In this document: positions 15,361-47,108 of the stretch, piece by piece | How positions within the stretch are numbered: the stretch's first letter is position 1 | Layout: each line of letters starts with the position of its first letter | Assembly (NCBI GenBank): GCA_016710015.1 | Contig: JADJLR010000002.1 | Span: 416,365 to 480,364 of the forward strand | Source: Flavobacteriales bacterium | GTDB taxonomy: Bacteria; Bacteroidota; Bacteroidia; Flavobacteriales_F; PHOS-HE28 | Reading direction: 5' to 3' | DNA length: 64,000 bases | Program-made: the position numbers and the translations under genes | Notes under the pieces: model-generated | What the model was told of the DNA's origin: nothing | Seen by the model: the letters and a program-made list of their open reading frames with translations, nothing else | Databases searched by the model: none

Positions 15361-15366
15361 TCGCCG

Positions 15367-20540: not shown

Positions 20541-20556
20541 GCCAAACGAATCCATT

Positions 20557-20594: not shown

Positions 20595-20608
20595 CCACAG
20601 TAGATCCT

Positions 20609-25776: not shown

Positions 25777-25830
25777 GAGGCGCGAATATCTCGTACGGAA
25801 CCTTCAACCCCATGGCCCCGTTGAAAGGCC

Positions 25831-27408
25831 ATGGACCCACGCACCTTGGTCATGCTTTTGGCACTGGCCGGAAGCCAGCTGCATGCGCAGGACTTTGTTC
25901 TGGACCCTTCATTCGGAACAAATGGCGTGGCCTATCAGCCTGGTCCGGAGCCATACAGCGGCGCATCTCCGCTTGTTATGGAGACCCTTCCCGATGGTGG
26001 ATTCCTCAGCCTGCATAGTGCAGGTGTGGACGCTATAAAGGTCATGCGCTGCACGCCGAACGGCAAACCGGATAGCAGCTTCGCGATCAATGGGCACTTC
26101 ATCCTCGCTCCGCCTTCCATCGGACTAATCCCTTCAGGTATGGTGGTGCGGCCGGATGGGAAGATCATCATTACCGCGACCGGCCTTTTTCAAGGCACGA
26201 ACGATCCGAAAATCTTCATCTGTCAACTCCTGCCGAACGGAGTGCCGGATCCTTCCTTTGGAGTGGACGGCGTTCTCTACTACAATATGCCCGTGTACCA
26301 GATCCTTCGGGACGCAGTGCTTCAGACGGACGGGAAGATCTTGGTGGCCGGCGGTTCGTCCGGCTCCATGTTCGTAAGCCGTTTCCTACCCAATGGGGAT
26401 CTGGACCTATCCTTCGCCACGAACGGTATCGGACTATACAACCCACCCGGCGTAACGGCTTCGGCCAAAACGATCGCCTTGGGTCCTGATGGTAGCATCT
26501 ACGTTGGCGGTTTCAAATCCATTGGTGCTGATGCCTCGGCATGGGTCGTGGCAAAGGCCGCCCCGAACGGTGTCCTCGATCCGTCATTCGGCGATGGCGG
26601 TATCTTCTTCTTGGACCACGTGCCCGACCAATCCACCATGTCCAACAAACCGGAGTGCATCATGGACCTGATGGTACTGGATGACGGTTCGCTGATCGCG
26701 GGTGGCTATGTGGCACTTTCCGACACTTGGGAACGCTTGGCCATAATGAAATTGGATGCTTTCGGCCAAGCCGTGCACGAATTCGGTGATAACGGACGGA
26801 TCTATGCCGGCACACTTCCAGAGGGCCGGTACTTAGGCAAAGAGTTGGTGTATGACCCTACCGGGTTATTCATCTTGGTCGGATCGATGCTTACCTTGGA
26901 CAATAGGAAGGAGGTTGTGATCCTGGCCTTCGATGGGATGGGCACTGTGCTGGATCAGAATGGCAGCAACGCGCCATTTCAGTTTCAGCCTGAGGTCCAG
27001 ATGCAGTTGACCACTTGCGGCACCTTCGACCTTCAAGGCCGATTGATCGTGGCCGTGAGCCATTGGAACCAACCCGAAGGCAGATCATCCTTCATCGCAT
27101 TCAACTTCGATATCAATGTCGGCTCGAATGAATTCCCGGAAAACTCCATCGGCCTTTCCGCTTGGCCCAATCCCACCTCGGGTCAATTGAGTATTTCCTA
27201 TGACCTGCAGGCTGCTTCCAAGGTATCCGTAGATTTATTGGATGTATCCGGACGAACGGTGGAGCGGTCACTCACGAACGCGCACAGGAGCTCAGGTGCG
27301 CAATTGGAACACCTGTCCCTCGACCCCTCCCTATCCAGTGGCACGTACCACCTCAGGGTACGGACCGGAGCTGGCTCCTGGACACGAACAGTTGTTATCG
27401 ATCGGTAG
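25831..27408 (+). CDS. delta-60 repeat beta-propeller protein with T9SS type A C-terminal sorting domain
   Basis: Signal peptide MDPRTLVMLLALAGSQLHAQ. Repeated DPSFG(x)NG / DSSFAINGH / DLSFATNG motifs (TIGR02608-like). C-terminus reads WPNPTSGQLSISYDL...VDLLDVSGRTV...SGTYHLRVRTGAGSWTRTVVI (Por_Secre_tail). Confidence 0.8.
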   Translation: MDPRTLVMLLALAGSQLHAQDFVLDPSFGTNGVAYQPGPEPYSGASPLVMETLPDGGFLSLHSAGVDAIKVMRCTPNGKPDSSFAINGHFILAPPSIGLIPSGMVVRPDGKIIITATGLFQGTNDPKIFICQLLPNGVPDPSFGVDGVLYYNMPVYQILRDAVLQTDGKILVAGGSSGSMFVSRFLPNGDLDLSFATNGIGLYNPPGVTASAKTIALGPDGSIYVGGFKSIGADASAWVVAKAAPNGVLDPSFGDGGIFFLDHVPDQSTMSNKPECIMDLMVLDDGSLIAGGYVALSDTWERLAIMKLDAFGQAVHEFGDNGRIYAGTLPEGRYLGKELVYDPTGLFILVGSMLTLDNRKEVVILAFDGMGTVLDQNGSNAPFQFQPEVQMQLTTCGTFDLQGRLIVAVSHWNQPEGRSSFIAFNFDINVGSNEFPENSIGLSAWPNPTSGQLSISYDLQAASKVSVDLLDVSGRTVERSLTNAHRSSGAQLEHLSLDPSLSSGTYHLRVRTGAGSWTRTVVIDR

Positions 27409-27670
27409 TATCAGTGCCATCGGTTGGTAACTGCTCACGCGCAGGTCCCGGTTCCAGCGGCGCATCGACCACTTCCGAGAGGAACCAAGCCAAGAGCACG
27501 ATCAGCAAGAGTGCCAAGAAGGCCTTGGGATCCCGGTATATCGGCAATTTGGGCCGTTGGACAGCGCGATGGTAGTTGTGCAATAGGCGCTTCGGATCCT
27601 TCAAGCGTTCGATCTCCTTCGCTGTGGGCTCCGGCCTTCCTTCCGGGGTTATGTGGTAACGTCGTTTCAT
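27395..27670 (-). CDS. small single-pass membrane protein, putative anti-sigma factor partner of the upstream ECF sigma
   Basis: ATGA overlap with the sigma-factor stop. 91 aa with one TM helix (AFLALLLIVLLAWFL), a basic N-terminus and a short acidic C-tail. Its 3' end overlaps the convergent gene (25831..27408) by 14 nt. Confidence 0.45.
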   Translation of the reverse strand: MKRRYHITPEGRPEPTAKEIERLKDPKRLLHNYHRAVQRPKLPIYRDPKAFLALLLIVLLAWFLSEVVDAPLEPGPAREQLPTDGTDTTDR

Positions 27671-28203: not shown

Positions 28204-28350
28204 TCGGTGGGTTCGGTAATGGAATGCACTCCGGTGGAAAAGGTAACACGCTATTCGGCGATGCCATGTAGGAGTTCGTCGAAACCTTAAAGCGTTTTAC
28301 CCGTTCCAAGGGCTAACTCAAAATCGGCCAAGACGGTCCATACGAGATAA

Positions 28351-31300
28351 ATGATCCTCTGGATGCCCATTGCTCATAGGCGATCCCTGCTCCTAGTCAT
28401 ACTCCTGACCCATCTACTGCTAGCCGGTGCCGCTAGTGCCCAGTCCTATGTCTGGCAATGGGGACACTCGCTATCCAGCAGCGATAAGGAGGAGGTGACC
28501 GGGGTCGCGATGGACAATGCCTCAGGTGCGTCATACGCTTGTGGATATACAGAAGGAAATGGTCTTATCGGCGGATCAAGCGGGACCGTTGGAGGAAACG
28601 TGGATGCCTTCGTAATGAAGTACGACCAGAACGGCGTCCGTGAATGGGCGTTTACTCCAACAAGCCTGAATGATAGCAGAGCTACAGGTATTGCCTTGGA
28701 TGCCGCTGGGAATATCTATGTCTGTGGTTGGTTCAAAGGGGTTATTGACATTGCAGGTAACTCCGCGCTGGGAACAGGCTTATTGTCCAGTTCCGGCAAC
28801 ATAGACTGGTTCATCGCATCCTTTTCACCGAACGGAATACTGAGGTGGAAGGCCAAGCTCGGAGGATCCGGGGACGACCTTCCTGCCGGCATCGCCGTTT
28901 CAGGGGATCAGGTCTCCGTGTTCGGGACCGTCAAAGGGCGGATCACGACCTCGTTCGGATCCATTTCAAACAGTCTGCCCTCCGGCAAAGAGAACTTGGT
29001 GATCGTCAGTTATGGATTGAACGGGACCGGCCAGTGGCTGATCTCCGGAGGAAGTGGCGATGATGAGATCCCACGATCCATCGCTAAGGACGCGAGCCGT
29101 GTGTTCGTGGCATTCAGGGCGAAGAACAACCCCTTCAGATGGTACGATCCAGCAGGTGCGGTCCTATCAAGTCACTCCAATTCGACGGACAAGGAAGTGC
29201 GGATTTCCGCGTTCAGCATCAGCGCTGCACACTTATGGACCACTTCCCTTTTCGAAAATGACAACGTGGACATTAGTGGGGCGGGCATGGCGGCGGGCTG
29301 CGATGCGCTCTACTATTCCAGCATCAGTCATTCTCCCTGCACATTCCCGGGAGTTGGCGTGGTCAACACCGGTACGCATGATTTCTTCTACCTCGGTCGC
29401 ATCGACCCGAACACCGGTCTATTTCAATGGGTGACCACCGGCACTACGACCGGTTCCACCCATACCATAGGAGGAACAGGAATAGCGATCGGAAGAGCAG
29501 GAGCGGTGCATGTGGTCGGCAACTTCAAGGACGATGTTTCGATCGATGGAAATACGTTGTTGTCAAGTACAGGTAAGGTCCAACCGTTCGTTGCCACCTT
29601 CCGGTCCTCCGGCATCCTCGTCCGGAACGACAAACTGACCAGTTCCAAGGATGCTTGGGGGGCATGTATTGCTTCTGACGCACAAGGAAGGCTCGCCATA
29701 GGAGGGCGCTTCAACACGAATATCTCGAGCAGTACGATTCCATTGACGGGACCTTCCAATGACAACGGTTACCTTTTCAAGGGTTCCATTGCCAATTTAG
29801 GCGGTGCCGAACCCTCTGCTTGGACCCCGCCTGGGACCATGTGTTCGAATGCGGGTCCATTTTCGTTGAATTCCTTGCTCATAGCCTACGGGAGCGGACC
29901 AGCAGTATCTGTCGCTAATTCCAGCAATGTGGTCTCGCCAAATGGAGCGCTCGGTGCCGTACTTGGCAGCTACGCACAGTTCAACACCGCTGGTGGGCAT
30001 ATCACCGTAGACCTTGGGGTCACAGTACCCTCCGGAACGACGATCAGTGTACTCTGGCGCACATCAGGAGCATCAGCCTCTGCGAACATCCTTTCCGGAA
30101 CAACCACCAGCCCGACAGCTTCTGCAGGCACGATCAGCACGGCCTCCAATTCGGCGATCTATTCGGATATCACGCTGTCCGGTCCTGCGCGATACATCAG
30201 GCTCCAACGTCCAAGTTCGGGCAGCTCGAATTTCGAAGTGGACGGTATCTACTACAGTTTCGGCAATGACCTTAGCGGCACATGGTCCGGACCAGGCGTG
30301 TCCGGATCCACCTTCAACCCTGCGGGACTGTCCGGAGCCGTTGCGTTGACCTATACCGTCGGCAGCGGATCCTGTGCATCGTCCACGACCGATTCCATCC
30401 AAGTGACCGCAGCTCCGAACGCAGGTACGAACGGAACGCTGTCGACGTGCAGTGGTTCACCAGCAGCCAGCTTATTCGCACAATTGGGTGGTACTCCGCA
30501 GACCGGTGGCATCTGGTCGGGACCAAGCCCAGTAGTCGGTGGCATGTTCGATCCGAGCAACATGAGCCCCGGCAACTACATGTACACCGTTGCTCCGACA
30601 GGTATTTGTGCGGGTTCGGCCACAGCATCGGCCTCTGTGACGGTCGGTGCCACCCCGAGTGGTGGCACCTTCACTGGGAATGGGGTGGTTTGCCCTTCCC
30701 CAGCGACCGGTACGCTGACGATAACCGGATATAGCGGCACGATCGTTCGTTGGAGGGTATCAACGAACGGCGGCACGCTTTGGACCTCGATCGGCTCCAC
30801 AAATTCCAGCATCACGTGGAGCAACCTCACCGGTCCAACACAGTACATGGTGGAACTAAGCCAACCCGGTTGTGGAACTGGTTTCAGTCCGGTGGCCACA
30901 CTGACGCCGCAAGACATGATCGCACCATCGATCATTTGCCCGGCGGTCGCCCCGATCCAAACCGCTTACGCCACGCCCTCATGCTCCATGCAAGTTCCCG
31001 ACTTCAGGACCTTGTACACTGCATCGGACAATTGCACGGCCACACCGACCATCGTCCAGGATCCGGCGGCGAACACATTCGTACCATTCGCGGAATACTT
31101 GTTGGTCCAACTGAAAGCCGTGGACGCGGCCGGAAATGGTTCCGCATCGTGCATGGCTACCATCATCGGTGTGGATACACTTCCTCCGACCTATAGCTGT
31201 CCAGGGGATGTGAATATCAATACCGATCCAGGTGCCTGCGGTGCAAGTCGCACGTTCTCGCCTATCGGATATTCGGACAACTGTTACGGGAATGGTAATT

Positions 31301-34300
31301 CGGAAGCGCTCTACCTCGCTCCCGGGAACGTGAGCCAGACGCCACTCTCGATATTCGACCCGACGGATTGGGTAGATATCACCGCGACCCCAACTCAGAC
31401 CCTTTCATTGGGTGATCATACGGTAGCCTATGTGCACGAGAACGGCGTTGAGGACGTAGTGCTTTGTTCGCAGATCATTCGAGTGACAGATTCACAACCT
31501 CCACAGATCTCCTGTCCAGCGGGTGTTCTGGCAATCACCAACACCGGTTGTACCGCTACTGGTGTCGCCCTCGGTACGCCGGTGTCTAGTGACAACTGCG
31601 GTGTGGCTTCCGTAACGAACGATGCTCCGGCCGTCTTCCCGATCGGTGTGACCACCGTGACCTGGACCGTGACCGACAACGCTGGATCGACCGCTACCTG
31701 CACACAGACCGTCACCGTGAGCGACAACGTGCCACCTACGATCACCTGCCCGGCCGACGTTGCCGTGAACACCAACAGTGGTTGTACCGCTACTGGTGTC
31801 GCCCTCGGTACGCCGGTGTCTAGTGACAACTGCGGTGTGGCTTCCGTAACGAACGATGCTCCGGCCGTCTTCCCGATCGGTGTGACCACCGTGACCTGGA
31901 CCGTGACCGACAACGCTGGATCGACCGCTACCTGCACACAGACCGTCACCGTGAGCGACAACGTGCCACCTACGATCACCTGCCCGGCCGACGTTGCCGT
32001 CAACACCAACAGTGGTTGTACCGCTACTGGTGTCGCCCTCGGTACGCCGGTGTCTAGTGACAACTGCGGTGTGGCCACCGTGACGAACGATGCTCCGGCC
32101 GTCTTCCCGATCGGTGTGACCACCGTGATCTGGACCGTGACCGACAACGCTGGACTGACCGCTACTTGCACACAGACCGTCACCGTGAGCGACAACGTGC
32201 CACCTACGATCACCTGCCCGGCCGACGTTGCCGTCAACACCAACAGTGGTTGTACCGCTACTGGTGTCGTCCTCGGTACGCCGGTGTCTAGTGACAACTG
32301 CGGTGTGGCTTCCGTGACGAACGATGCTCCGGCCGTCTTCCCGATCGGTGTGACCACCGTGATCTGGACCGTGACCGACAACGCTGGACGGACCGCTACC
32401 TGCCACAGACCGTCACCGAGGACACGCCACCTCGCCGGCCGACGGCTGGAACACCAACAGTGTCCGTGTCCCGCGGGTAACACGGGCCCTCGCGCGCTCT
32501 GTGCGCCACCATGCCGGACCGACAACGCTGGACTGACCGCTACTTGCACACAGACCGTCACCGTGAGCGACAACGTGCCACCTACGATCACCTGCCCGGC
32601 CGACGTTGCCGTGAACACCAACAGTGGTTGTACCGCTACTGGTGTCGCCCTCGGTACGCCGGTGTCTAGTGACAACTGCGGTGTGGCTTCCGTACGAACA
32701 TGCTCCGGCTCTCGTCCGCCGGCAGTACTGGTGTGCCTCGGTACGCGGTGTCTAGTGACAACTGCGGTGTGGCTTCCGTGACGAACGATGCTCCGGCCGT
32801 CTTCCTGGTGTGACACCGGATCGGACCGTGACCGACAACGCTGGATCGCCGCTACCTGCCACAGACCGTCACCGTGAGCGACAACGTGCCACCTAGATCG
32901 CCTGCCCGGCCGACGTTGCCGTCAACACCAACAGTGGTTGTACCGCTACTGGTGTCGCCCTCGGTACGCCGGTGTCTAGTGACAACTGCGGTGTGGCTTC
33001 CGTGACGAACGATGCTCCGGCCGTCTTCCTGATCGGTGCGACCACCGTGACCTGGACCGTGACCGACAACGCTGGACTGACCGCTACTTGCACACAGACC
33101 GTCACCGTGAGCGACAACGTGCCACCTACGATCACCTGCCCGGCCGACGTTGCCGTCAACACCAACAGTGGTTGTACCGCTACTGGTGTCGCCCTCGGTA
33201 CGCCGGTGTCTAGTGACAACTGGGTGTGGCCTCTGCCGTCGTGGACCGAGTGACACTGCCACCACTCCCTGCCGTGCCCCAGGGTGTCCCTGGTGTCGTC
33301 CTCGGTACACCGGTGTCTAGTGACAACTGCGGTGTGGCTTCCGTGACGAACGATGCTCCGGCCGTCTTCCCGATCGGTGTGACCACCGTGACCTGGACCG
33401 TGACCGACAACGCTGGACTGACCGCTACTTGCACACAGACCGTCACCGTGAGCGACAACGTGCCACCTACGATCACCTGCCCGGTCGACGTTGCCGTCAA
33501 CACCAACAGTGGTTGTACCGCTACTGGTGTCGCCCTCGGTACGCCGGTGTCTAGTGACAACTGCGGTGTGGCCACCGTAACGAACGATGCTCCGGCCGTC
33601 TTCCCGATCGGTGTGACCACCGTGATCTGGACCGTGACCGACAACGCTGGACTGACCGCTACTTGCACACAGACCGTCACCGTTTCGGATGCGACGGCCC
33701 CTTCTGCTGACTGTCAGAATATTACCGTTCAACTTGATGCAAGCGGTAGCGCTACCATCACGCCTGCTTCCATTGATGGCGGCAGTAGCGATAACTGTAG
33801 TGGCTTTACTCTGAGCGCTTCTCAGACTGTCTTCAACTGTAGCCATATTGGAGTAAATACCGTGACACTCACCGTTACGGATGCTTCCGGCAACGTGGGT
33901 ACGTGCGATGCGATCGTAACCGTGGAGGACACCATCGATCCCACTATCACTTGCCCAGGAGATCAAACCGTACAACTGGCATTCGGTAGCACCGGCACTT
34001 GGTATGTACCTGTCATCAACGCGAATGACAATTGTGGAATTTCAGCGATCGCCCCAGCCGTTACGGACAGTTTGTGGCTCACTGCCGGAACGCATGCACT
34101 CGCCTATACAGCTTATGATGCAGCCGGGAATTCCTTTGAATGTGATTTTGAAGTGACAGTAGACATCTTAGATTGCTTTGGAACGCCAAATGGTACCGCA
34201 TTCCTTGACAACTGCGCAACATGCGTGGGTGGCAACACCGGTGAAGTAGCTTGCGTGCAAGACTGCAACGGTGACTTCGGCGGTACGGCATTCCTTGACA

Positions 34301-37300
34301 ACTGCGCAACTTGCGTGGGCGGCAACACCGGTGAAGTAGCTTGCGTGCAAGACTGCAACGGTGACTTCGGCGGTACGGCATTCCTTGACAACTGCGCAAC
34401 TTGCGTGGGTGGCAACACCGGTGAAGTGGCTTGTGTGGCTGACTGCAACGGTGACTTCGGTGGTACCGCATTCCTCGACAACTGCGCAACTTGCGTGGGT
34501 GGCAACACCGGTGAAGTGGCTTGTGTGGCTGACTGCAACGGTGACTTCGGCGGTACGGCATTCCTCGACAACTGCGCAACCTGCGTGGGTGGCAACACCG
34601 GTGAAGTAGCTTGTGTGGCTGACTGCAACGGTGACTTCGGCGGTACGGCATTCCTCGACAACTGCGCAACCTGCGTGGGTGGCAACACCGGTGAAGTAGC
34701 TTGTGTGGCTGACTGCAACGGTGACTTCGGCGGTACGGCATTCCTCGACAACTGCGCAACCTGCGTGGGCGGCAACACCGGTGAAGTAGCTTGTATCCAA
34801 GACTGCAACGGTGACTTCGGCGGTACGGCAGTCCTCGACAACTGCGCAACCTGCGTGGGCGGCAACACCGGTGAAGTAGCTTGTATCCAAGACTGCAACG
34901 GTGACTTTGGCGGAACGGCATTCCTCGACAATTGCGCAACCTGCGTGGGCGGAAACACCGGTGAAGTAGCTTGTATCCAAGACTGCAACGGTGACTTCGG
35001 CGGTACGGCATTCCTCGACAACTGCGCAACTTGCGTGGGTGGCAACACCGGTGAAGTAGCTTGTGTCCAAGACTGTAACGGTGACTTTGGCGGTACGGCA
35101 TTCATCGACAACTGCGCAACCTGCGTGGGTGGCAACACCGGTGAAGTAGCTTGTATCCAAGACTGCAACGGTGACTTCGGCGGTACGGCATTCATCGACA
35201 ATTGCGCAACCTGCGTCGGTGGCAACACCGGTGAAGTAGCTTGTGTGGCTGACTGCAACGGTGACTTCGGCGGAACAGCATTCCTCGACAACTGCGCAAC
35301 TTGCGTGGGTGGCAACACCGGTGAAGTAGCTTGTGTGGCTGACTGCAACGGTGACTTCGGCGGAACAGCATTCCTCGACAACTGCGCAACTTGCGTGGGT
35401 GGCAACACCGGTGAAGTAGCTTGTGTGGCTGACTGCAACGGTGACTTCGGCGGTACGGCATTCATCGACAATTGCGCAACCTGCGTCGGTGGCAACACCG
35501 GTGAAGTAGCTTGTGTGGCTGACTGCAACGGTGACTTCGGCGGAACAGCATTCCTCGACAACTGCGCAACTTGCGTGGGTGGCAACACCGGTGAAGTAGC
35601 TTGTGTGGCTGACTGCAACGGTGACTTCGGCGGAACAGCATTCCTCGACAACTGCGCAACCTGCGTCGGTGGCAACACCGGTGAAGTAGCTTGTGTGGCT
35701 GACTGCAACGGTGACTTTGGCGGAACAGCATTCATCGACAACTGCGCAACCTGCGTGGGTGGCAACACCGGTGAAGTAGCTTGTGTCCAAGACTGCAACG
35801 GCGACTTTGGCGGCACAGCATTCCTCGACAACTGCGCAACCTGCGTGGGCGGCAACACCGGTGAAGTGGCTTGTGTCCAAGACTGCAACGGCGACTTCGG
35901 TGGAACGGCATTCCTTGACAACTGCGCAACTTGCGTGGGCGGCAACACCGGTGAAGTAGCTTGTGTGGCTGACTGCAACGGTGACTTCGGCGGAACAGCA
36001 TTCATCGACAACTGCGCAACCTGCGTGGGTGGCAACACCGGTGAAGTAGCTTGTATCCAAGACTGCAACGGTGACTTCGGCGGTACGGCATTCCTCGACA
36101 ATTGCGCAACCTGCGTGGGTGGCAACACCGGTGAAGTAGCTTGTGTGGCTGACTGCAACGGTGACTTCGGCGGAACAGCATTCCTCGACAACTGCGCAAC
36201 CTGCGTGGGTGGCAACACCGGTGAAGTAGCTTGTATCCAAGACTGCAACGGTGACTTCGGCGGTACGGCATTCCTCGACAACTGCGCAACTTGCGTGGGT
36301 GGCAACACCGGTGAAGTAGCTTGTATCCAAGACTGCAACGGTGACTTCGGCGGAACAGCATTCATCGACAACTGCGCAACCTGCGTGGGTGGCAACACCG
36401 GTGAAGTGGCTTGTGTCCAAGACTGCAACGGCGACTTCGGTGGAACGGCATTCCTTGACAACTGCGCAACTTGCGTGGGCGGCAACACCGGTGAAGTAGC
36501 TTGTGTGGCTGACTGCAACGGTGACTTCGGCGGTACGGCATTCATCGACAATTGCGCAACCTGCGTGGGCGGCAACACCGGTGAAGTGGCTTGTGTCCAA
36601 GACTGCAACGGCGACTTCGGTGGAACAGCATTCATCGACAACTGCGCAACCTGCGTGGGAGGTAACACCGGTGAAGTAGCTTGTGTGGCTGACTGCAACG
36701 GTGACTTCGGCGGTACGGCATTCCTTGACAACTGCGCAACTTGCGTGGGTGGCAACACCGGTGAAGTAGCTTGTGTGGCTGACTGCAACGGTGACTTCGG
36801 CGGAACAGCATTCCTCGACAACTGCGCAACCTGCGTCGGTGGCAACACCGGTGAAGTAGCTTGTGTGGCTGACTGCAACGGTGACTTCGGCGGAACAGCA
36901 TTCATCGACAACTGCGCAACCTGCGTGGGTGGCAACACCGGTGAAGTAGCTTGTATCCAAGACTGCAACGGTGACTTCGGCGGAACAGCATTCATCGACA
37001 ACTGCGCAACCTGCGTGGGCGGCAACACCGGTGAAGTGGCTTGTGTCCAAGACTGCAACGGCGACTTCGGTGGAACGGCATTCCTTGACAACTGCGCAAC
37101 TTGCGTGGGTGGCAACACCGGTGAAGTAGCTTGTGTCCAAGACTGCAACGGTGACTTCGGCGGTACGGCATTCATCGACAATTGCGCAACCTGCGTGGGC
37201 GGAAACACCGGTGAAGTAGCTTGTGTGGCTGACTGCAACGGTGACTTCGGCGGTACAGCATTCATCGACAACTGCGCAACCTGCGTCGGTGGCAACACCG

Positions 37301-39096
37301 GTGAAGTAGCTTGTGTCCAAGACTGCAACGGTGACTTTGGCGGCACAGCTTTCATCGACAATTGCGCAACCTGCGTGGGTGGCAACACCGGTGAAGTGGC
37401 TTGCACCGCTGACTGCAACGGTGACTTCGGCGGTACGGCACTTCCAGGCACGACCTGTGACGACAACAATGCCAACACGGTAGGTGACACATGGAACACA
37501 AGCTGCGCGTGTATCGGAACACCGATCAACTTCGATTGCGAAGGCGTTAGTGGCGGAAGTGCTTCACCCGGAACCGCTTGTGACGATCAAAACGAAGGCA
37601 CCATCAACGACATCTGGACCGCAGATTGCCAGTGTAGCGGAACGATCGTATCGTGCAGCAGTGATGCAGGTGCCGACCAAAGCACGTGTGCAACAGCATT
37701 GAATTTGAACGCGAGCGGCATAGGTTCATGGAGTGGTCCGGGGTTCGTGACCATATCTGAGATCGACTCTCCTCAGTCCTTGATAACGTGTACCGTCCCT
37801 GGCACCTATACACTTGTTTGGACCGTAAGCATTCCAGGCTGCACGGCGACGGACGACGTAGAGGTGACCTTCCATGGAACACCGGATGCTTCATTCACCT
37901 ACGCGAGCACCACGATCTGCTCCGATGGCTCCATCATATCCCCTTCCACCTCCACCACGGGCGGCACGTTCATGGCACCGACCGGGCTAGCGATCAACGC
38001 TAGTAGTGGCGCTATCGATCCGAGCAACAGTGAGCAAGGCAGCTATGAAGTCACCTACACGTTGGATGGCACTTGTCCGATAAGCTCCATGCAAGTGATC
38101 ACCGTGAATGATGCATTGGACCCTTCTTGGGCCGCTCCGCAATCGGTCTGTGCAAACGCAACGATCATCTCTTTGGACGAATTGATCACCGGTGATGGTG
38201 GCGGTATCTGGAGTGGACAGGGCGTGAATGCAGCTATGTTCGACCCCGCAGTAGTAGAGGGTAGCTCGTTGGTGACCTATACCGTTGGCTCGGGTAGCTG
38301 CGAACAGAGCAGCAGTGCTACGATCGTTGTGACTCCGGCACCGCAAGCCAATGGAGGAGCCGATGCATTCACGTGTGATCCCGAATACCAATTATCGGCG
38401 AACGCTTTCGGTGGAACCGGGATATGGAGTACCGATGGCATGGCCCAATTCCTGCCAAATGCCTCCGACCCGAACGCGATCGTGACCGGAGCAGGTCCCG
38501 GAACGTATGTCCTCTTCTGGACGGTCTCCAATGACGTTTGCTCTTCCACGGACACGATACGGATCACATTCCTCGACCCGGCCACCGACCTGACCATCGA
38601 TGCCGGACAAGACCAGATCTTGGAGGTAGAGACCAACACATTCTTGGAAGCGACCACCACTCCTGGAGCGAATGTGACATGGACCCTACTGAATGGATCC
38701 GGGTCCATCGCAACGCCGAACGCGGCTCAAACCGACGTTCATGGCTTGGGTATCGGTCCCAATACATTCATCGCCACGGTGTCATTGGGTCAATGTATCG
38801 GTACATCGGATACGATCGTCGTGCGGGTGAAGGATCTATTCATTCCACAAGGTTTCTCACCGAACGGGGATGGCGACAACGACCTGTTCGAAGTGACCGG
38901 CATGGCGGCCTATCCGGGAAGCGAACTGATGATCTACAACCGTTGGGGGCAAGAAGTGTTCTCCGACCCAGCCTATGCCAACGGTTGGGGCGGAAGGTCC
39001 AAGAATGGAAGCGACCTACCCAATGACACCTATTTCTACCTGCTGAACCTATCTGACGGAACCGCGTACAACGGCTTCGTAGTCATCAAACGATGA
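28351..39096 (+). CDS. giant SprB-like cell-surface adhesin with T9SS type B (gliding motility-associated) C-terminal domain; reading frame disrupted within the HYR array (about 32400-33300)
   Basis: Signal peptide MILWMPIAHRRSLLLVILLTHLLLAGAASAQ. N-terminal beta-propeller-like repeats, then HYR (hyalin-repeat) domains (DNVPPTITCPADVAVNTNSGCTATG...SSDNCGVASVTNDAPAVFPIGVTTVTWTVTDNAG). Next come 36 x 30-aa Cys-rich repeats, PKD/SprB-like domains, and the C-terminus KDLFIPQGFSPNGDGDNDLFEVTGMAAYPGSELMIYNRWGQEVF...NDTYFYLL (TIGR04131-type). Three ORF pieces (28351..32781, 32972..33253, 33226..39096) are joined by degraded repeat copies. A PorP/SprF gene follows immediately. Confidence 0.75.
31490..33690 (+). 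repeat. tandem 240-bp (80-aa) near-identical HYR-domain coding repeats, ~9 copies, three of them degraded by indels
   Basis: The string gtgccacctacgatcacctgcccggccgacgttgcc recurs at a 240-nt period (e.g. 31729, 31969, 32209). The junk segments 32395-32520, 32690-32900 and 33205-33300 are recognisably the same repeat with many small deletions. Confidence 0.8.
34167..37440 (+). repeat. 36 tandem copies of a 90-bp unit encoding a 30-aa four-cysteine repeat DCNGDFGGTAF(L/I/V)DNCATCVGGNTGEVAC(V/I)(Q/A)
   Basis: Counted from the translation: 36 DCNGDFGG occurrences plus a degenerate first copy (DCFGTPNG). DNA copies differ mainly at third codon positions (ggc/ggt, acg/acc/aca, ctt/ctc, gta/gtg, tgc/tgt). 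The peptide varies only at V/I, Q/A and L/I/V. Confidence 0.9.
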
Positions 39097-40016
39097 GGAC
39101 CAAAGGACATATCCTCCTTGTCGTAGCCATGATCTGCGGGAAGCAAATGACCGGTCAACATACGCCATTGACAAGCCAATACCTGTTCAACGGATTGGTG
39201 ATCAATCCCGCCTATGCTGGCAGTCGTGATGCATTGGCGGCCAACCTCACCTATCGTCATCAATGGGCCGGTCTCGATGGTGCCCCGGTGACCCAGATCG
39301 CCAGCATCCATGCTCCAGTGGCCCGACGGAAGGTGGGTTTGGGACTCCTATTGTACAACGACAAGATCGGCGTGAGCCAAGAGACCGGTCTCTTTTCGAA
39401 CTACGCGTACCGTGTGCGGTTCAGAAATGGGAAACTCTCCTTCGGACTGGGTGCCGGCCTCACCTTCCTACGCAGCCAATGGTCGACCTTGGCGATCCAG
39501 CAGACCTCGGACATTTCCTTCGCCTCGGATACGCGTAGCGCCATTCGTCCCAACTTCAGTACAGGGGCCTTCTACTACACCAAGAATTGGTTCGTTGGAG
39601 TCTCCGCTCCTTTCCTGATCGTACACCGTTACTCGGTGAACAACGATGGCTGGAAGCTCTCGGACAGCCGTGGAGATCTGCAACCTATGCTAACGGGCGG
39701 GTACGTATTTGAACTTTCCCGGGAAGTGAAACTGAAACCGAGCACCTTGGTCCGTTACCGCACAGCGACCGGGGTTCAAGCCGACCTTAGCACGAACCTG
39801 ATCTACCAGGATCGGATCTGGTTGGGAGCATCATACCGCTCCGGAGATGCCTTCGTTGCCTCGCTCGAAGTGCTGCCCACACCCCAGTGGAGACTCGGAT
39901 ATGCGTATGATCTGGGAATGTCCAAACTACGTGCAGCTCATTTCGGTTCGCATGAGGTGATGCTCCAATATGAATTCGGCTACCGTATCCGAGTAAAAGA
40001 CCCTCGCTCATTCTAA
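39093..40016 (+). CDS. sprF: PorP/SprF family type IX secretion system membrane protein
   Basis: ATGA overlap with the adhesin stop. The N-terminus reads HTPLTSQYLFNGLVINPAYAGSRDALAANLTYRHQWAGLDGAPVT, typical of TIGR03519. It is about 300 aa with beta-barrel character. Confidence 0.85.
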   Translation: MRTKGHILLVVAMICGKQMTGQHTPLTSQYLFNGLVINPAYAGSRDALAANLTYRHQWAGLDGAPVTQIASIHAPVARRKVGLGLLLYNDKIGVSQETGLFSNYAYRVRFRNGKLSFGLGAGLTFLRSQWSTLAIQQTSDISFASDTRSAIRPNFSTGAFYYTKNWFVGVSAPFLIVHRYSVNNDGWKLSDSRGDLQPMLTGGYVFELSREVKLKPSTLVRYRTATGVQADLSTNLIYQDRIWLGASYRSGDAFVASLEVLPTPQWRLGYAYDLGMSKLRAAHFGSHEVMLQYEFGYRIRVKDPRSF

Positions 40017-42206
40017 ATGCTTCGCAAGCTCTCCATAGCCTTCGTGTTGCTCGCCAATGTTGGTGTGGCTCAGGAGTCCCATGAGGTAATGCCCCTAGCA
40101 CTTGGCAACATGACGGAGGACTATGCGCCGGTCTTTCTGGATTCGGGTTTCGTTATGAGTTCCATCCGGGAGACCGAAGCCACCATCGCATTCAAGGACG
40201 CAGAAACCGGCCGACCGCTTGCCGACCTATACTGGGTCCCCCTGATGGACAATGTACCGGGCACTCCGGTCCTCTTCAGTGCGAACCTAACAACACCGGT
40301 GAACGAAGGTCCAGCTGCATTCACACACGGTGGTAAAACGATCTGCTACACCCGGAATGTGACACTTCCGAAGAAGTTATCCAACCTCCGCGCATCGAAT
40401 TCCCAACTCGGACTCTTCTTCTCCGATCTGGAGAACGGGACCTGGTCTTTGCCGATCCCTTTCATGCACAATAGCACCAAATACTCGGTGATGCACCCAG
40501 CGATCAGCATCGATGGCAACACCCTGATATTCGCCAGTGACATGCCAGAGGGCCTTGGTGGCATGGACCTCTACCGCAGTACTCGAACCGTCGAGGGCTG
40601 GTCCACGCCGGAGAATCTCGGTGCTGCGATCAATGGCCCGAACAACGATGTATTTCCCTCCTTCGGTCCGAACGGTGCCTTGTACTACTCCAGCGACCGG
40701 ATCGGCGGAATGGGCAAACTGGACCTCTACATGGCTCCGCGCAACGGTCCTACTTGGAGTGATCCGACCGCCCTGCCAGCCCCGATCAACTCTCCGGGGA
40801 ACGACATGGGGATCACCTTCCGCGCCGATGGACGCAATGGTTACTTCAGTTCGAACCGAAGTGGGACGGATCGGATCATGTCCATGAAGTGGACCGTTCC
40901 GAAATTCCGGGACTGTGCACCTCAAGAGCGAAACAATTACTGTTACGCCTTCCGAGCCAAGAAGCATGCCGCCACAAGTTCACTCCCGCTTGACCACGTT
41001 TGGGAACTTGGTGACGGTACCCGCACCACCGGTTTGGTCGCCGAACACTGCTACGACCAGCCAGGCACCTACGTCGTACGCTCCTTGCTCGTGGATCGCA
41101 AGACCGGGGATGTCTTCCATCAACTCAAGGAGCACGAGTTGGTGATCGATGATGCCCAGCAAGCTTGGATCTCATCACCGGATACGGTGCGCACTGGACG
41201 TGCGATGGCCTTGGATGCATTCAATAGCCACCTGACCGAATGGGAACCCTCGGAATACCATTGGGATATGGGAAATGGCTCAGTCCTTCAAGGCGAGAAG
41301 ATCCAGCATACGTTCCGGATACCTGGAGTGTATGAAGTCAAATTGGATATTCTTTCCCAACCGGATGCCAACGGTGCGATCGCCAACCAGTGCAACACCC
41401 GAACCGTGGTGGTCTTGGATCGCTTCCACGATCAGGAGGACCTGACCGTGGTGGCCACCTACCAAGATGTCATGGGGGCCACACACACGTTCGAGTACCA
41501 AGAATTGCCCTTTGATCAATTGGGTATGGCCATGGATGAGATGGCGGATGCTACCTTCTCCGTGGAACTCTTTGCATCGAAGGATCGGATCAGCTTGGAC
41601 GATCCGAAATTCATGGAAGTCCGCAAACTGTATAGGGTGGTGGAACGTTTCGATCCGGAACGCGGCGTGTACACCTATTCAGTAGGTGAGACCAGTGATC
41701 TGGAAGAGCTTTACAAAGTGTTCAAGAAGGTGAAGGAGTTGCAATTCCTGGATGCCGAAGTATTCCAACTGCAACCCGAGAAGTTGATGGACCTGAGCAA
41801 ACTCGATCTTGCCTCGATCGAAGAGTTGAATCATTCGAAACTGCGGACCAATGCGATCCACTTCGCGTACAAAAGCGCGGATATCGGATCGGGGTCCGAG
41901 GAGACCTTGGACCAGATCATCGGATTGCTCCGTCAACACCCGGAATTGAAGTTGGTGATCGAGGCGCACACGGACGACATTGGAAACAACGCATACAACA
42001 TCGACCTTTCCCAACAGCGTGCGCAGTCCGTACTCAGTTATCTGGAGGAACACGATGTTTCTCCGGACCGGTTGATCCCCGTGGGCCATGGAGAGAACCA
42101 GCCCATGGCGAGCAACAAGACCGAAGATGGGCGCAGTCAGAACCGTCGTGTGGAATTCCGCATGACCGTTAAGGGCGAGGATCAGGCGTTCCAGAAGACC
42201 CGCTGA
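40017..42206 (+). CDS. OmpA family protein with PD40 (TolB-like WD40) repeats and PKD domains
   Basis: Signal peptide MLRKLSIAFVLLANVGVAQE. PD40-like repeats (GGMDLYRS, GKLDLYMA, NGYFSSNRSG). PKD-like blocks (WELGDGTRTTG...GTYVVRS; WDMGNGSV...GVYEVKL). C-terminal OmpA domain reads IHFAYKSADIGSGSEETLDQIIGLLRQHPELKLVIEAHTDDIGNNAYNIDLSQQRAQSV...NRRVEF. Confidence 0.8.
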   Translation: MLRKLSIAFVLLANVGVAQESHEVMPLALGNMTEDYAPVFLDSGFVMSSIRETEATIAFKDAETGRPLADLYWVPLMDNVPGTPVLFSANLTTPVNEGPAAFTHGGKTICYTRNVTLPKKLSNLRASNSQLGLFFSDLENGTWSLPIPFMHNSTKYSVMHPAISIDGNTLIFASDMPEGLGGMDLYRSTRTVEGWSTPENLGAAINGPNNDVFPSFGPNGALYYSSDRIGGMGKLDLYMAPRNGPTWSDPTALPAPINSPGNDMGITFRADGRNGYFSSNRSGTDRIMSMKWTVPKFRDCAPQERNNYCYAFRAKKHAATSSLPLDHVWELGDGTRTTGLVAEHCYDQPGTYVVRSLLVDRKTGDVFHQLKEHELVIDDAQQAWISSPDTVRTGRAMALDAFNSHLTEWEPSEYHWDMGNGSVLQGEKIQHTFRIPGVYEVKLDILSQPDANGAIANQCNTRTVVVLDRFHDQEDLTVVATYQDVMGATHTFEYQELPFDQLGMAMDEMADATFSVELFASKDRISLDDPKFMEVRKLYRVVERFDPERGVYTYSVGETSDLEELYKVFKKVKELQFLDAEVFQLQPEKLMDLSKLDLASIEELNHSKLRTNAIHFAYKSADIGSGSEETLDQIIGLLRQHPELKLVIEAHTDDIGNNAYNIDLSQQRAQSVLSYLEEHDVSPDRLIPVGHGENQPMASNKTEDGRSQNRRVEFRMTVKGEDQAFQKTR

Positions 42207-42327: not shown

Positions 42328-45300
42328 GTGTCACCTTCGAACCGCATCTTGGCCCACCTGATCTTCTTGTGTGCTTCGGTCCAAGCGACCGTGGCCCAGA
42401 CGGGTCTTCAATTCATCCAGAATCGTGGGCAATGGCCGGATGCAGTGACCTATCGTGCGGACGCACCCTCGGCCACGGTCTGGGTCGAACGCAGTAGCTT
42501 GTTGATCGATCGGTACGATGCCACCGCCATGGAGCACTTGGCCCATGCGCATACGCACGGTGGTGAAGTCCCGCGAACCGTTGCTCATCATGCACTCCGG
42601 TTGGGCTTTGCAGGCGCGAACCCAGACCCGATCATCGAACCGTTGGGTATTCGACCGGGGGCGTACAACTACATCCTCGGTAATGATGCCTCCCGTTGGG
42701 TGGGCAAGGCACATGCATTCGGTGCCTTGGTGCAAAAGGACATCTACCCTGGGGTGGACCTGCGCATTCGGGCAAAACACACCGCGTTGAAATACGACCT
42801 ACTCCTTGCAGCCGAAGCGGAGGTGGGAAAGATCCTTCTTCACTATGAAGGAGCCGAACGCATCGAGCTGACCCCGGACCGGCTGATCATCCACACCGCA
42901 CTGGGCGCTCTTACCGAAAGTATTCCACTGGCTTACCAAGAGATCGCTGGGGAACGCCGACACGTCGAATGCACCTATCGCAGGGTTGGTGATCTCATCG
43001 GTTTCGAACTTGGTGTACACGACCCTACTGCACCCGTGGTGATCGACCCGACCCTTGTCTTCAGTACGTATTCCGGTTCGTTCGCCAACAATTTCGGTTA
43101 CACCGCTACTTTCGATCGCAATGGATTTCTGTACAGCGGCAGCACGGCGTTCGGTCAAGGCTATCCGACCACCACGGGAGCCTATCAAGTTTCGCATGCC
43201 GGTGGTGATGGCTTGTTCGACGGGACCGATATCGCCCTTACGAAGTACGACACCACGGGCACCTTCCTCATCTGGAGCACGTACCTGGGCGGAAGCAGCG
43301 ACGAACTACCCCACAGTTTGATCGTGAACGGGAACGACGAGGTCTTCGTGTACGGCACCACCAGTTCGCCTAATTTTCCCACTACTGCCGGGGCGTTCGA
43401 TGGCACCTTCCATGGTGGCCCGCCCGTGGACCTCACCAACGGACTGGGTGCCGATATGCCGAACGGTGCGGACATGATCGTGGCACGCTTGAGCGCAGAT
43501 GGTTCGCAATTGCTGGCGAGCACCTACCTCGGTGGTTCTGGTACCGATGGATTGAATACAGCGGCAGGGCTGAAGTTCAACTATGCGGATGAAGTACGCG
43601 GAGAGGTGTTGCTGGATGCCAACGACAATGTGTACATCGCGAGTTGCACGGCATCGCCCGACATGCCAGTGACCATCGGCAGCATCCAACCCGTGTATGG
43701 TGGCGGTGCGCAGGATGGCGTGGTGGTGAAGATGGACGCTTCACTCACTTCGGTGATCTGGGGCAGCTACTTCGGCGGAACTGCTGCCGATGCCATCTAC
43801 AACATCGAATTGAACAGTGCAGGAGCATTGTACGTGACAGGTGGAACGCGTAGCACGGACCTGCCCGTCACCTCTGGAGCGTATCAAAGCACCTTCCAAG
43901 GCGGCACTGCGGACGGATTCGTTGCGTTGATCGGTGGCAATGGAGCCACCTTGCTCGCTAGTAGCTATTTCGGCACCAGCGGATATGACCAATGCTACTT
44001 CGCCGAGCTGGATCAGGAAGGCCAAGTGTACCTCTTCGGTCAAACCACTGCGGTCGGAAATGTCCTGATCGTGAACGCGCCGTACAACGTTCCGAACGCA
44101 GGTCAATTCATTTCGAAAATGGATCCTGGCCTCACAGCGATCCAGATCAGCACCCGATTCGGTCAAGGCGATGGCATTCCGGACATCTCCCCGACCGCAT
44201 TCTTGGTGGACTATTGCGACAAGATCTACGTGAGTGGTTGGGGTAGCGCGATCCAAGGTGGACAGTTGAGCACGGCCGGGTTACCGGTAACTCCCGATGG
44301 CTTTCAACAAACGACCGATGGCAACGACTTCTACCTCGCGGTCTTTGACATCGATCTCTCGGACCTGTTCTACGCCACCTACTTCGGCGGCGGCACCAGT
44401 GCCGAGCATGTGGATGGAGGCACCAGCCGATTCGACCGACGTGGTCGAGTTTACCAAAGTGTTTGCGCCGGATGTGGCGGAAATTCCGACTTCCCGATCC
44501 AACCGAACCCCGGTGCGTGGAGCCCCACGAACAATAGCGGTTTCTGCAACAACGGCGTTTTCAAGTTCGATTTCGACCTACCGATCGTTGTGGCGGACTT
44601 CGGATCGAGCACCAACTGCCTGCCTACGCCGATCACCTTCAACAACCAGAGCTACGGTGCCACGGACCATGCTTGGCAATTCGGTGATGGCACGAGCAGC
44701 ACGCTTCCCTCGCCGAGTCACCTTTATGCCGCTCCGGGTGTGTACACCGTGACCTTGATCGCGAGCAATGCATCAACGTGCAACCTGAGTGATACAACGA
44801 CCCAGCAGATCGTGATCCTGGGCGACGGCAACCTTGAACTTCCGGACACGACCATTTGTTCGGGCGGATCCGTTCAGATCGGCATCCTGCCCATCGCCGA
44901 TCCGAGCGTGACCTATCAATGGTCCCCATCGCAAGGGTTGTCCAACGCAACAGCTTCGAATCCCTTCGCTTCGCCCATACAGACCAATACGTATGCCTTG
45001 ACGATCAGCAACGGAACGTGCAGCACCACCGCGCGACAAACCGTGATCGTGAGCACGGGTGCGATCGATGCCGGCGCGGAACAACTCCTTTGCGGACCCG
45101 ACCCGGTCACGACCCTTGTGGCGAACGGTTTCGGAAGTATCCATGCGTTCCAATGGTCCAGTACCGCCACATTCTCCGATACACTGAACGCACCCATCGC
45201 AGATAGTACAGCGCTCGTGATGCCGCTTCGTGATACGTGGTACTTCGCACGCGCATTGGATCAGGCATGTAGCGCCGTGGATAGTGTACTCCTCCGCGTT

Positions 45301-46071
45301 TCGCTTGCAGTCCCTCTCCTTTTCGGTGACAGCACGATCTGCACATCGGATATCGCGACGTTGGAGTTGTCCGGTATCGATCCGGGTTCCACGATCACTT
45401 GGGAACCGACCGATGGGATCATTTCCGGACAAGGGACCACCAGTGTACAGGTCGCACCGGAGGAGACCATGGGCTTTGGTGTTACCGTATTATCCCCGCT
45501 CGGATGCATCTGGAATGCAACCACTATCGTCGTGGTTTCGCCACTGGATGGCACCTCGGTGATCGCTACGGCCACGCCCTCGCTCGTACTTCCCGGCGAA
45601 AGCGTTCAACTTCAAGCTTTCCCAACCGATGCGGCGAGTTATTCCTGGTCACCGACCGCACCACTCAACACGCCGAACATCGCCACTCCCATAGCAACGG
45701 TCACAGCAAGCACGCTGTTCACGGTGACCGTTTCCGATGGCATTTGCACCAAGGATGCCTTCGTTCGGGTAGAGGTCCACGACCTCCGTTGCGCCGACCC
45801 GGATATTTTCGTTCCGAACACTTTCACCCCGAATGGCGATGGGAACAATGATGTCCTTTACGTGCGTGGTCGAGCGGTGGAACGCCTGAATTTCGAACTG
45901 TTCGATCGATGGGGTGAGTTGATCTTCCAGACCACCGATCTCACGCGCGGATGGGACGGTACGTACAAAGGGAAACCCGTCGACCCTGCGGTCTTCGTGT
46001 ATCACCTGACCGCATATTGCATCGATGGGCAGCGCTACTTCACAAAAGGAAACGTGACCGTTCTGCGATGA
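42328..46071 (+). CDS. T9SS type B C-terminal domain protein with SBBP beta-propeller repeats and PKD domain
   Basis: In-frame GTG at 42328 gives a signal-like N-terminus (VSPSNRILAHLIFLCASVQATVAQ); the ORF opens at 42265. SBBP-type repeats (YLGGSSDELPHSLIVNGNDEVFVYGTTSSPNFPTTAGAF and others). PKD region (GDGTSSTLPSPSHLYAAPGVYTVTLIASN). C-terminus reads DIFVPNTFTPNGDGNNDVLYVRGRAVERLNFELFDRWGELIF...FVYHL. Confidence 0.8.
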   Translation: MSPSNRILAHLIFLCASVQATVAQTGLQFIQNRGQWPDAVTYRADAPSATVWVERSSLLIDRYDATAMEHLAHAHTHGGEVPRTVAHHALRLGFAGANPDPIIEPLGIRPGAYNYILGNDASRWVGKAHAFGALVQKDIYPGVDLRIRAKHTALKYDLLLAAEAEVGKILLHYEGAERIELTPDRLIIHTALGALTESIPLAYQEIAGERRHVECTYRRVGDLIGFELGVHDPTAPVVIDPTLVFSTYSGSFANNFGYTATFDRNGFLYSGSTAFGQGYPTTTGAYQVSHAGGDGLFDGTDIALTKYDTTGTFLIWSTYLGGSSDELPHSLIVNGNDEVFVYGTTSSPNFPTTAGAFDGTFHGGPPVDLTNGLGADMPNGADMIVARLSADGSQLLASTYLGGSGTDGLNTAAGLKFNYADEVRGEVLLDANDNVYIASCTASPDMPVTIGSIQPVYGGGAQDGVVVKMDASLTSVIWGSYFGGTAADAIYNIELNSAGALYVTGGTRSTDLPVTSGAYQSTFQGGTADGFVALIGGNGATLLASSYFGTSGYDQCYFAELDQEGQVYLFGQTTAVGNVLIVNAPYNVPNAGQFISKMDPGLTAIQISTRFGQGDGIPDISPTAFLVDYCDKIYVSGWGSAIQGGQLSTAGLPVTPDGFQQTTDGNDFYLAVFDIDLSDLFYATYFGGGTSAEHVDGGTSRFDRRGRVYQSVCAGCGGNSDFPIQPNPGAWSPTNNSGFCNNGVFKFDFDLPIVVADFGSSTNCLPTPITFNNQSYGATDHAWQFGDGTSSTLPSPSHLYAAPGVYTVTLIASNASTCNLSDTTTQQIVILGDGNLELPDTTICSGGSVQIGILPIADPSVTYQWSPSQGLSNATASNPFASPIQTNTYALTISNGTCSTTARQTVIVSTGAIDAGAEQLLCGPDPVTTLVANGFGSIHAFQWSSTATFSDTLNAPIADSTALVMPLRDTWYFARALDQACSAVDSVLLRVSLAVPLLFGDSTICTSDIATLELSGIDPGSTITWEPTDGIISGQGTTSVQVAPEETMGFGVTVLSPLGCIWNATTIVVVSPLDGTSVIATATPSLVLPGESVQLQAFPTDAASYSWSPTAPLNTPNIATPIATVTASTLFTVTVSDGICTKDAFVRVEVHDLRCADPDIFVPNTFTPNGDGNNDVLYVRGRAVERLNFELFDRWGELIFQTTDLTRGWDGTYKGKPVDPAVFVYHLTAYCIDGQRYFTKGNVTVLR

Positions 46072-47105: not shown

Positions 47106-47108
47106 AAA

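Follow-up and report, generated by a model that had tools for sequence, protein, structure and literature searches.

The subject of this analysis is a 64,000-nucleotide stretch of DNA from a Flavobacteriales bacterium (contig JADJLR010000002.1, positions 416,365 to 480,364 of the forward strand; hereafter the window), in which a giant gene for a type IX secretion system (T9SS) cargo is followed by a gene for a PorP/SprF-family outer-membrane carrier and by a third gene coding for a PorE-like protein. This locus belongs to the known triads formed by a type B cargo, a PorP-like protein and a PorE-like protein, and the composition of its stalk is unusual. By analogy with related systems, the cargo is probably a single T9SS type B adhesin of ~4,000 amino acids (aa), held on a PorP-like barrel of its own, which the PorE-like protein would tether to peptidoglycan; this would make it a fixed fibre and not one driven along a track.

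In the mechanism proposed here, the cargo would be exported by Sec and would cross the outer membrane through the T9SS, directed by its C-terminal domain (CTD) of type B. The CTD would remain bound to the dedicated beta-barrel encoded at 39093..40016, and this barrel would be tethered to the peptidoglycan by the beta-propeller/PKD/OmpA protein encoded at 40017..42206. The outcome would be a static, C-terminally anchored fibre, with a stalk composed of proximal immunoglobulin-like (Ig-like) domains, 36 four-cysteine beads and ~17 HYR Ig-like domains, and this stalk would keep the SBBP beta-propeller head at the N-terminus well away from the cell. Transcription of the cargo gene may be driven by a divergently encoded extracytoplasmic function (ECF) sigma factor via an AAC-N16-CGT promoter.

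The three genes of the triad are co-directional (type B cargo, 28351..39096; PorP, 39093..40016; PorE-like, 40017..42206), and their stop and start codons overlap or abut. The junction between cargo and carrier is an ATGA overlap at 39093 (AAACGATGAGG), which supports translational coupling of the carrier to the cargo gene, while the junction between carrier and third gene reads TAAATG. When the PorP protein was used as a probe, with one genome per species, the same order was found to be kept in 21 Flavobacteriales species, with a PorP identity of 49-75%. In these species, the upstream gene is an open reading frame (ORF) of 2,100-3,000 aa with a type B CTD wherever the contig permits, and the downstream gene codes for a full-length homologue of the PorE-like protein. 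A looser form of the triad is present in Chitinophaga.

The two open reading frames of the cargo gene

As assembled, the cargo gene appears as two ORFs on the forward strand, ORF A (28351..32781, 1476 aa) and ORF B (33226..39096, 1956 aa), which lie in the identical frame. Judging from their sequences, both are pieces of one gene, and the interruption at 32390-33310 most likely arose in assembly, through consensus errors where near-identical tandem units had collapsed, and is not a gene boundary. Three-frame translation reveals that HYR-repeat coding (SDNVPPTITCPADVAVNTNSGCTATGVALGTPVSSDNCGVASVTNDAPAVF) runs across the gap between the two ORFs, hopping from frame to frame. When this region is mapped onto a clean HYR unit of 234 nucleotides (nt), dense patches of small indels and partial units are observed at ~32390-33310. 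The first of these patches (32390-32516) keeps the frame only through a net change of -90 nt, and aligning the garbled stretch with each of the other assemblies needs at least 12 gap openings. Nucleotide identity between HYR units reaches 100%, with an average of 95.8% among the 15 units of the intact copy described below; the collapse of the array is attributed to this near-identity. The putative start of ORF B, a GTG at 33226, was rejected as a genuine start, since inspection of the translation places it in the middle of a HYR unit and reveals no signal peptide.

An intact copy of the gene exists in an independent assembly. In the JGI contig Ga0558120_00474 (in which the locus is stitched), the gene is one ORF of 12,057 nt that codes for 4,018 aa and holds a single terminal stop. 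The window and this copy are 99.92% identical with 1 gap over 20000-32418, and 99.67% identical with no gaps over 33290-50000, including the entire 36-copy cysteine array; the 29 kb flanking the garbled region contain one gap in total. The 871 nt between them (32419-33289) correspond to 2,181 nt in the JGI copy, a shortfall of 1,310 nt or ~5.6 HYR units. An earlier reading made from the sequence alone (hereafter, the sequence-only reading) had proposed one gene running from a signal peptide at 28351 to a type B CTD at 39096, and this proposal is upheld by the JGI assembly, where one uninterrupted ORF is found in place of two independent genes. The length of ~3,580 aa given in that reading was an underestimate and has been rejected as the true protein length, because the intact copy has 4,018 aa and the window lacks the HYR units mentioned above.

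Other assemblies of the locus are broken in other ways. A short-read assembly (L014) carries a single ORF of 2,056 aa, with the same start and extending through the CHU_C end, in which both repeat arrays have collapsed, while in the other long-read metagenome-assembled genomes (MAGs) the gene is cut into 3-13 ORFs with break points that are different in each assembly. The PorP protein and the sigma factor are found, identical in sequence, on ~100 public contig blocks, among them several NCBI MAGs (GCA_0167…), JGI metagenomes and ENA assemblies; counted as a lineage, the organism turns up in more than 100 contig blocks. According to contig coordinates, the assembled distance from the sigma gene to the PorP gene ranges from 6.3 to 12.7 kb, and therefore the HYR copy number in the strain of the window is not fixed by the assemblies. 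The GCA_0167 series is one that we take to consist of long-read activated-sludge MAGs, presumably of wastewater origin. Among the public assemblies of the same species (L001-L016), most long-read MAGs annotate the giant gene as 3-13 "hypothetical" or "HYR domain-containing" proteins, and the database entries P0048, P0050 and P0051 are fragments of it.

The in-frame stops and frame shifts in the window as assembled, as well as the fragmented ORFs found at this locus in many public MAGs, could also be explained by a genuine pseudogene or by two independent genes, giving a shortened N-terminal protein with no anchor, a separate C-terminal protein, or both. This explanation is very improbable. The break points differ from one assembly to another and two assemblies are intact; the indel patch and the 1.3-kb deficit are confined to the near-identical repeat; and ORF B, which lacks a signal peptide, begins inside a HYR unit. 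The substitution pattern also argues for a live gene under purifying selection, as 17 of the 23 variable nt sites of the cysteine array are third codon positions, and the 36 differences between window and JGI copy within the gene comprise 27 synonymous and 9 nonsynonymous changes.

Architecture of the cargo and its four-cysteine bead

Domains were searched with Pfam and NCBIfam profiles, repeats were located with Tandem Repeats Finder (TRF), and sequence searches were run against the PDB; the resulting features are collected in the table. The protein starts with a signal peptide recognised by inspection (MILWMPIAHRRSLLLVILLTHLLLAGAASA, followed by Q), which shows a basic n-region, a hydrophobic core and an AxA site. 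It is followed by an SBBP-type beta-propeller, which is matched by NF047494 (E 9.4e-12) and, in PDB sequence searches, by SBBP-derived propellers and CylK; distant homologues of the cargo carry PF06739. This propeller would be the distal tip of the protein, because the CTD is the anchored end. The region at aa ~490-640 matched no family when this sub-segment was searched with profiles. The HYR domains are matched by PF02494 with E values of 2.9e-44 and 1.3e-26, and the PDB sequence search with this region was empty. The presence of a beta-propeller-like N-terminal region, a HYR array and an array of cysteine-rich beads, all three put forward in the sequence-only reading, was thus borne out by profile, TRF and PDB searches.

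The C-terminal end is a type B CTD located at aa 1873-1956 of ORF B and running to the stop codon. As that reading had also held, this domain is recovered with profile searches, with scores of 57.4 bits for TIGR04131 (cutoff 35) and 81.1 bits for PF13585 (CHU_C; cutoff 27). The "PKD/SprB-like distal domains" proposed for the region before it were not confirmed. The SprB repeat PF13573 gave no match on the two ORFs (E <= 0.01) or on six sub-segments searched at E <= 1, and the segment 37446..38841 yielded just a K319L-like PKD match of 24 bits, below the cutoff of 27, along with weak similarity to the Ig-like repeats in the stem of GhpA, a protein discussed in the next section.

The cysteine array holds 36 tandem copies of a 30-aa unit, GTAFLDNCATCVGGNTGEVACVxDCNGDFG, and is predicted to form a disulfide-stabilised stalk. 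Variation among the 36 copies falls on three main positions (5, 22 and 23), with single-copy substitutions at positions 4 and 22. Searches of Pfam and NCBIfam with the window segment and with 28 diverse homologous segments gave only spurious matches, and the repeat has no PDB match among solved structures. AlphaFold2 models the bead with a pLDDT of 93.2 when an alignment of 28 sequences is used, and of 57 from a single sequence. A word-indexed search with the cysteine repeat retrieved just 4 proteins, and an exhaustive HMMER search was used instead, in which the relatives of the bead amount to at least 1,443 clusters (50% identity) at E <= 1e-3 and 212 at E <= 1e-30. The family is found mainly in T9SS type A cargos and also in proteins lacking a CTD. 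Of the top 150 clusters, 78 terminate in a CTD of type A and 6 in one of type B, while the remaining 66 show neither; many of the latter are truncated and some plainly have other architectures. The related protein P0052 (2,739 aa) has the same architecture as the cargo, with ~34 cysteine repeats. On the 3' side of the cysteine array, the window encodes two copies of the motif PGT.CDD.N..T..D.W...C.C.G (37446..37650), a motif that is present on both sides of the array in P0052 and also in the protein P0049.

Table. Features of the locus and its surroundings, given as window positions or as residues (aa) of the intact 4,018-aa copy
Feature	Location	Strand	Basis or remark
Signal peptide	aa 1-31 of intact copy		inspection
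SBBP-type beta-propeller	aa ~31-480 of intact copy		NF047494, PDB matches, PF06739 in homologues
Unassigned region	aa ~490-640 of intact copy		possibly a beta-sandwich, guessed solely by inspecting the sequence
Ig-like and degenerate HYR domains	aa ~640-1045 of intact copy
15 near-identical 78-aa HYR units	aa 1046-2215 of intact copy
Two divergent HYR units	up to aa ~2375 of intact copy
36 x 30-aa four-cysteine repeats	aa ~2384-3466 of intact copy
Two short CDD..D.W..C.C motifs	after the cysteine repeats in intact copy
Ig-like domains	aa ~3540-3930 of intact copy
Type B CTD	aa 3935-4018 of intact copy
Putative anti-sigma factor, 91-aa ORF	27395..27670	-	overlaps the sigma gene stop by 4 nt; one hydrophobic segment; putative function
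ECF-type sigma-70 factor, 178 aa	27667..28203	-	divergent from the cargo gene, 147-bp gap
Candidate ECF-type promoter motif GAAACC-N15-CGTTCCA (AAC-N16-CGT)	28281..28308	+	ends 43 nt before the cargo ATG; putative function
5' piece of cargo gene	28351..32781	+	signal peptide, SBBP propeller, unassigned region, Ig-like/degenerate HYR, onset of HYR array at 31486
HYR (Ig-like) array	31486..34170	+	234-nt units (TRF period 234), ~9.4 unit-lengths as assembled, plus two divergent units
Garbled, collapsed HYR stretch	32390..33310	+	many small indels, which account for the stop at 32779 and the seeming second start at 33226
3' piece of the same cargo gene	33226..39096	+	ORF, domain matches, 99.67% identical without gaps to the JGI copy over 33290-50000
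Four-cysteine repeat array	34192..37445	+	TRF: 90-nt / 30-aa unit, 36.1 copies
Two CDD..D.W..C.C motifs, then anchor-proximal Ig-like domains	37446..38841	+	inspection, weak profile matches
Type B T9SS C-terminal sorting domain	38842..39093	+	PF13585, TIGR04131
PorP/SprF-family outer-membrane carrier, 307 aa	39093..40016	+	PF11751, TIGR03519; start codon overlapping the cargo TGA
PorE-like periplasmic protein, 729 aa	40017..42206	+	PD40 beta-propeller, two PKD, OmpA_C; starts directly after the PorP stop
Second type B triad	42328..49343	+	cargo2, PorP2, TPR/PD40/DUF1573 protein
Cargo2, 1247 aa	42328..46071	+	DUF7948/PKD/Ig_7/CHU_C
PorP2	46128..47105	+
TPR/PD40/DUF1573 protein	47109..49343	+	no OmpA domain

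The carrier, the PorE-like protein and known systems

The carrier is matched by PF11751 (246 bits) and TIGR03519 (251 bits; cutoff 90.55), and these matches, together with the junction sequence, confirm the PorP/SprF gene with an ATGA overlap at 39093 that the sequence-only reading had described. A PDB sequence search with this protein was empty. In SprF, a Cys-X-Cys motif in the C-terminal tail forms a disulfide with GldK, by which the adhesin is coupled to the gliding track (PMC12635249). This motif is absent from the carrier, whose sole cysteine is found at position 15, in the signal peptide, and whose C-terminus reads ...YRIRVKDPRSF. The 17 PorP relatives examined (14 Flavobacteriales orthologues and 3 Chitinophaga homologues) also have no cysteine in the C-terminal tail, and they share a conserved, cysteine-free ending (…RVKDPRYF).

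The third protein of the triad shows a PD40 propeller (63 bits) and an OmpA_C domain (80 bits) in which the NRRVE motif is present. PDB matches of the OmpA_C domain are solved peptidoglycan-binding domains, including PorE's C-terminal domain, 6TOP (E 7.9e-11). Against the NCBIfam PorE model (NF052230) the protein scores 226.5 bits, with a cutoff of 600, and against CHU_0125 it scores 229 bits, also well below a cutoff of ~600. From these matches the protein is PorE-like and not PorE, as only the propeller and OmpA parts correspond. PorE itself, a lipoprotein, belongs to the T9SS core and combines TPR, beta-propeller, CRD and OmpA_C domains, whereas the protein of the window has neither lipobox nor TPR and holds two PKD domains.

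Several characterized systems show a similar arrangement. In Porphyromonas gingivalis, the type B protein PG1035 is part of a complex with PorP and PorE (PMC9143113), and this biochemically demonstrated assembly resembles the one proposed for the window, with a type B CTD protein on PorP and PorP on the peptidoglycan-binding PorE, although PG1035 is small, unlike the giant cargo of the window. It has been proposed that non-mobile type B cargos are wall-tethered via PorP-PorE pairs, while sprB-sprF lacks an adjacent porE-like gene (PMC9143113). In Flavobacterium johnsoniae, the genes Fjoh_3952, Fjoh_3951 and Fjoh_3950 form one operon that encodes a type B cargo, the PorP/SprF-like shuttle cognate to it and a PorE-like protein, an arrangement which, as described (PMC12618676), is like that of the window. 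Fjoh_3952, encoded with Fjoh_3951 and the PorE-like Fjoh_3950, forms static foci only, and anchoring to the cell wall has been proposed (PMC12618676). No PorE-like gene is encoded alongside the mobile cargos SprB, Fjoh_4750 or Fjoh_1123 of the same bacterium (PMC12618676; PMC9143113). The cargo of the window is far larger than Fjoh_3952 and differs from it in domain make-up.

The sequence-only reading had likened the locus to sprB-sprF and had seen in the cargo the principal motility filament of the organism. In the sprCDBF operon, the giant repetitive type B CTD adhesin SprB is likewise followed by a carrier of the PorP/SprF family, SprF, which is required for delivery of SprB to the surface. 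A SprB-type gliding adhesin, loaded by its carrier and propelled along the helical gliding track as the main motility adhesin, would agree with the features shared with sprB-sprF, namely the giant size, the repeated Ig-like domains, the type B CTD and the neighbouring PorP/SprF gene; moreover, some non-SprB type B cargos also travel on the F. johnsoniae track. Such a role is nevertheless unlikely here. What stands of the analogy is the order of a type B cargo gene and then a PorP/SprF gene, but the SprB repeat is missing, the carrier lacks the C-terminal Cys-X-Cys required for the SprF-GldK disulfide, and a conserved PorE-like OmpA gene, absent from the mobile F. johnsoniae cargos, is tightly linked. 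The synteny also fails, as sprC and sprD are absent upstream of the cargo gene, where a divergent ECF sigma gene is found instead, followed by genes for beta-propeller proteins with type A CTDs. The reading as a SprB-type mobile adhesin fails four sequence tests, and a further point against it is a second type B triad located downstream, with a second type B cargo adjoining the first triad, so that the cargo is not the sole protein of this kind in the organism. Given the PorE-like gene and the missing cysteine in the tail of the carrier, the motility interpretation is reversed in favour of a probable static fibre.

The closest structural counterpart comes from Aureispira sp. CCB-QB1, in which ghpA, ghpB (PorP) and ghpC (PorE) encode, like the window, a giant Sec/T9SS cargo with a type B-like CTD, then a PorP and then a PorE homologue. 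GhpA has 5,898 aa and forms a static, 240-nm, outer-membrane-anchored grappling-hook fibre (PDB 9flp; bioRxiv 10.1101/2024.01.29.577165). It is the only solved-structure relative of the C-terminal 557 aa of the cargo in the PDB search (E 1.3e-23), with 52.6 bits for the CTD and weak matches of 18-32 bits, with high bias, for the Ig-like region. Scaling from GhpA, the fibre of the window would measure ~100-200 nm.

These likenesses might be carried further, to a multimeric, rigid capture fibre resembling the grappling hook, with protomers lying side by side, anchored by PorP and PorE, and with a head that captures cells or particles, such as prey or activated-sludge floc partners. The gene order is that of ghpABC, GhpA is the sole solved-structure relative, and the stalk is long, repetitive and rich in cysteines, with a length that appears to be conserved, given the ~34 cysteine repeats of P0052. 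We regard this extension as improbable, because the similarity to GhpA is limited to the C-terminal ~450 aa, and PDB searches with the N-terminal 630 aa and with the HYR region of the cargo did not retrieve it. The head is an SBBP propeller and not a hook module, and the chemistry of the stalk differs as well: GhpA has a stem of 52 Ig-like repeats and a hook-module tip, while the protein of the window would have HYR units, 36 four-cysteine beads and an SBBP beta-propeller tip. Heptamerisation and prey capture are features of GhpA.

Candidate upstream regulator, neighbouring genes and implications

The sequence-only reading had placed a divergent ECF sigma/anti-sigma pair 147 bp upstream of the cargo gene. 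The sigma gene is indeed located at exactly this distance, and its product consists of regions 2 and 4 only, matched by PF04542, PF08281 and PF07638, with a TIGR02937 score of 84.5 bits (cutoff 42.9). It is also present upstream of the cargo gene, in divergent orientation, in five related species (loci L019, L021, L024, L027 and L030). The anti-sigma part of the pair is less firm, because the 91-aa ORF has no Pfam match; its N-terminal 49 aa are conserved beside the sigma gene in L024 and L030.

Promoters recognised by ECF sigma factors are typically of the form AAC…CGT. One forward-strand copy of an AAC-N16-17-CGT motif occurs upstream of the cargo gene in six of six species, including L024, where an extra 0.7 kb separates sigma and cargo genes, while no copy on the reverse strand, which would suggest autoregulation of the sigma gene, was found in the upstream regions of these six species. 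The motif is best taken as a lead and not as a result. Scans for sigma-70 promoters and intrinsic terminators over 27300-28450 and 38500-50300 gave nothing above shuffled expectation, as expected for Bacteroidota. Similar AAC/CGT motifs are found just upstream of a type A cargo gene (25797, +) and of a peptidase S46 gene (23079, -).

Several points weigh against the static-fibre reading. Secretion, complex formation, immobility and adhesion are all predicted from homologues, and the link between a PorE-like gene and static behaviour comes from one F. johnsoniae cargo together with GhpA. The protein encoded at 40017..42206 scores far below the PorE equivalog cutoff and lacks both TPR and lipobox cysteine, so it may act differently. 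As regards regulation, the definition of the promoter motif was post hoc, and its count in the window (9, versus 6.7 +/- 2.5 expected) shows no enrichment. Finally, the break in the cargo gene may, though with low probability, reflect true strain polymorphism or a real frameshift in the strain of the window.

The second triad, which is also found downstream in related species, differs from the first one in its carrier. PorP2 holds a single cysteine 5 residues from the C-terminus (…RFKACPTQL), conserved in six other species, and PorP1 lacks it. Because the cysteines of SprF and PorG bond GldK and PorK, respectively, by analogy triad 2 might be coupled to the T9SS/gliding track and triad 1 anchored to the wall. 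Core T9SS genes (sprA/sov, gldKLMN/porKLMN) were not found within the 64-kb window. Upstream of the sigma gene, at 23317..27408 (+), there are genes for two secreted beta-propellers, an 819-aa DUF5122/Rax2-like protein and a 525-aa protein of delta-60/DUF5122 repeats that carries a T9SS sorting domain of type A, and the neighbourhood is therefore rich in T9SS cargo. Further away, at 9751..17685, a gene for a PBP1C-type transglycosylase/transpeptidase (772 aa) comes after one for a bacterial alpha-2-macroglobulin (1869 aa), a pairing which is already known and looks ordinary.

A broader proposal can be advanced only tentatively, by analogy with GhpA. The triad may encode a GhpA-like, peptidoglycan-tethered static fibre with an undescribed type of stalk, in which the 36 x 30-residue four-cysteine beads would represent a new and widespread extracellular rod module, switched by the ECF sigma factor and serving cell-cell or cell-particle capture in abundant activated-sludge Flavobacteriales.

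For annotation, the lesson of this locus is that many "hypothetical proteins" in public long-read MAGs of this species are artefact fragments of a collapsed repeat, the real product being an adhesin of ~4,000 aa. The four-cysteine bead is a widespread, uncurated module for which a family should be defined and a structure solved. A PorE-like OmpA gene in the locus, taken together with a carrier whose C-terminal tail has no cysteine, offers cheap sequence markers to separate probable static type B adhesins from mobile ones of the SprB type. A fixed fibre of 100-200 nm, if true, could be relevant to the formation of flocs or to how the cell interacts with prey or partners.

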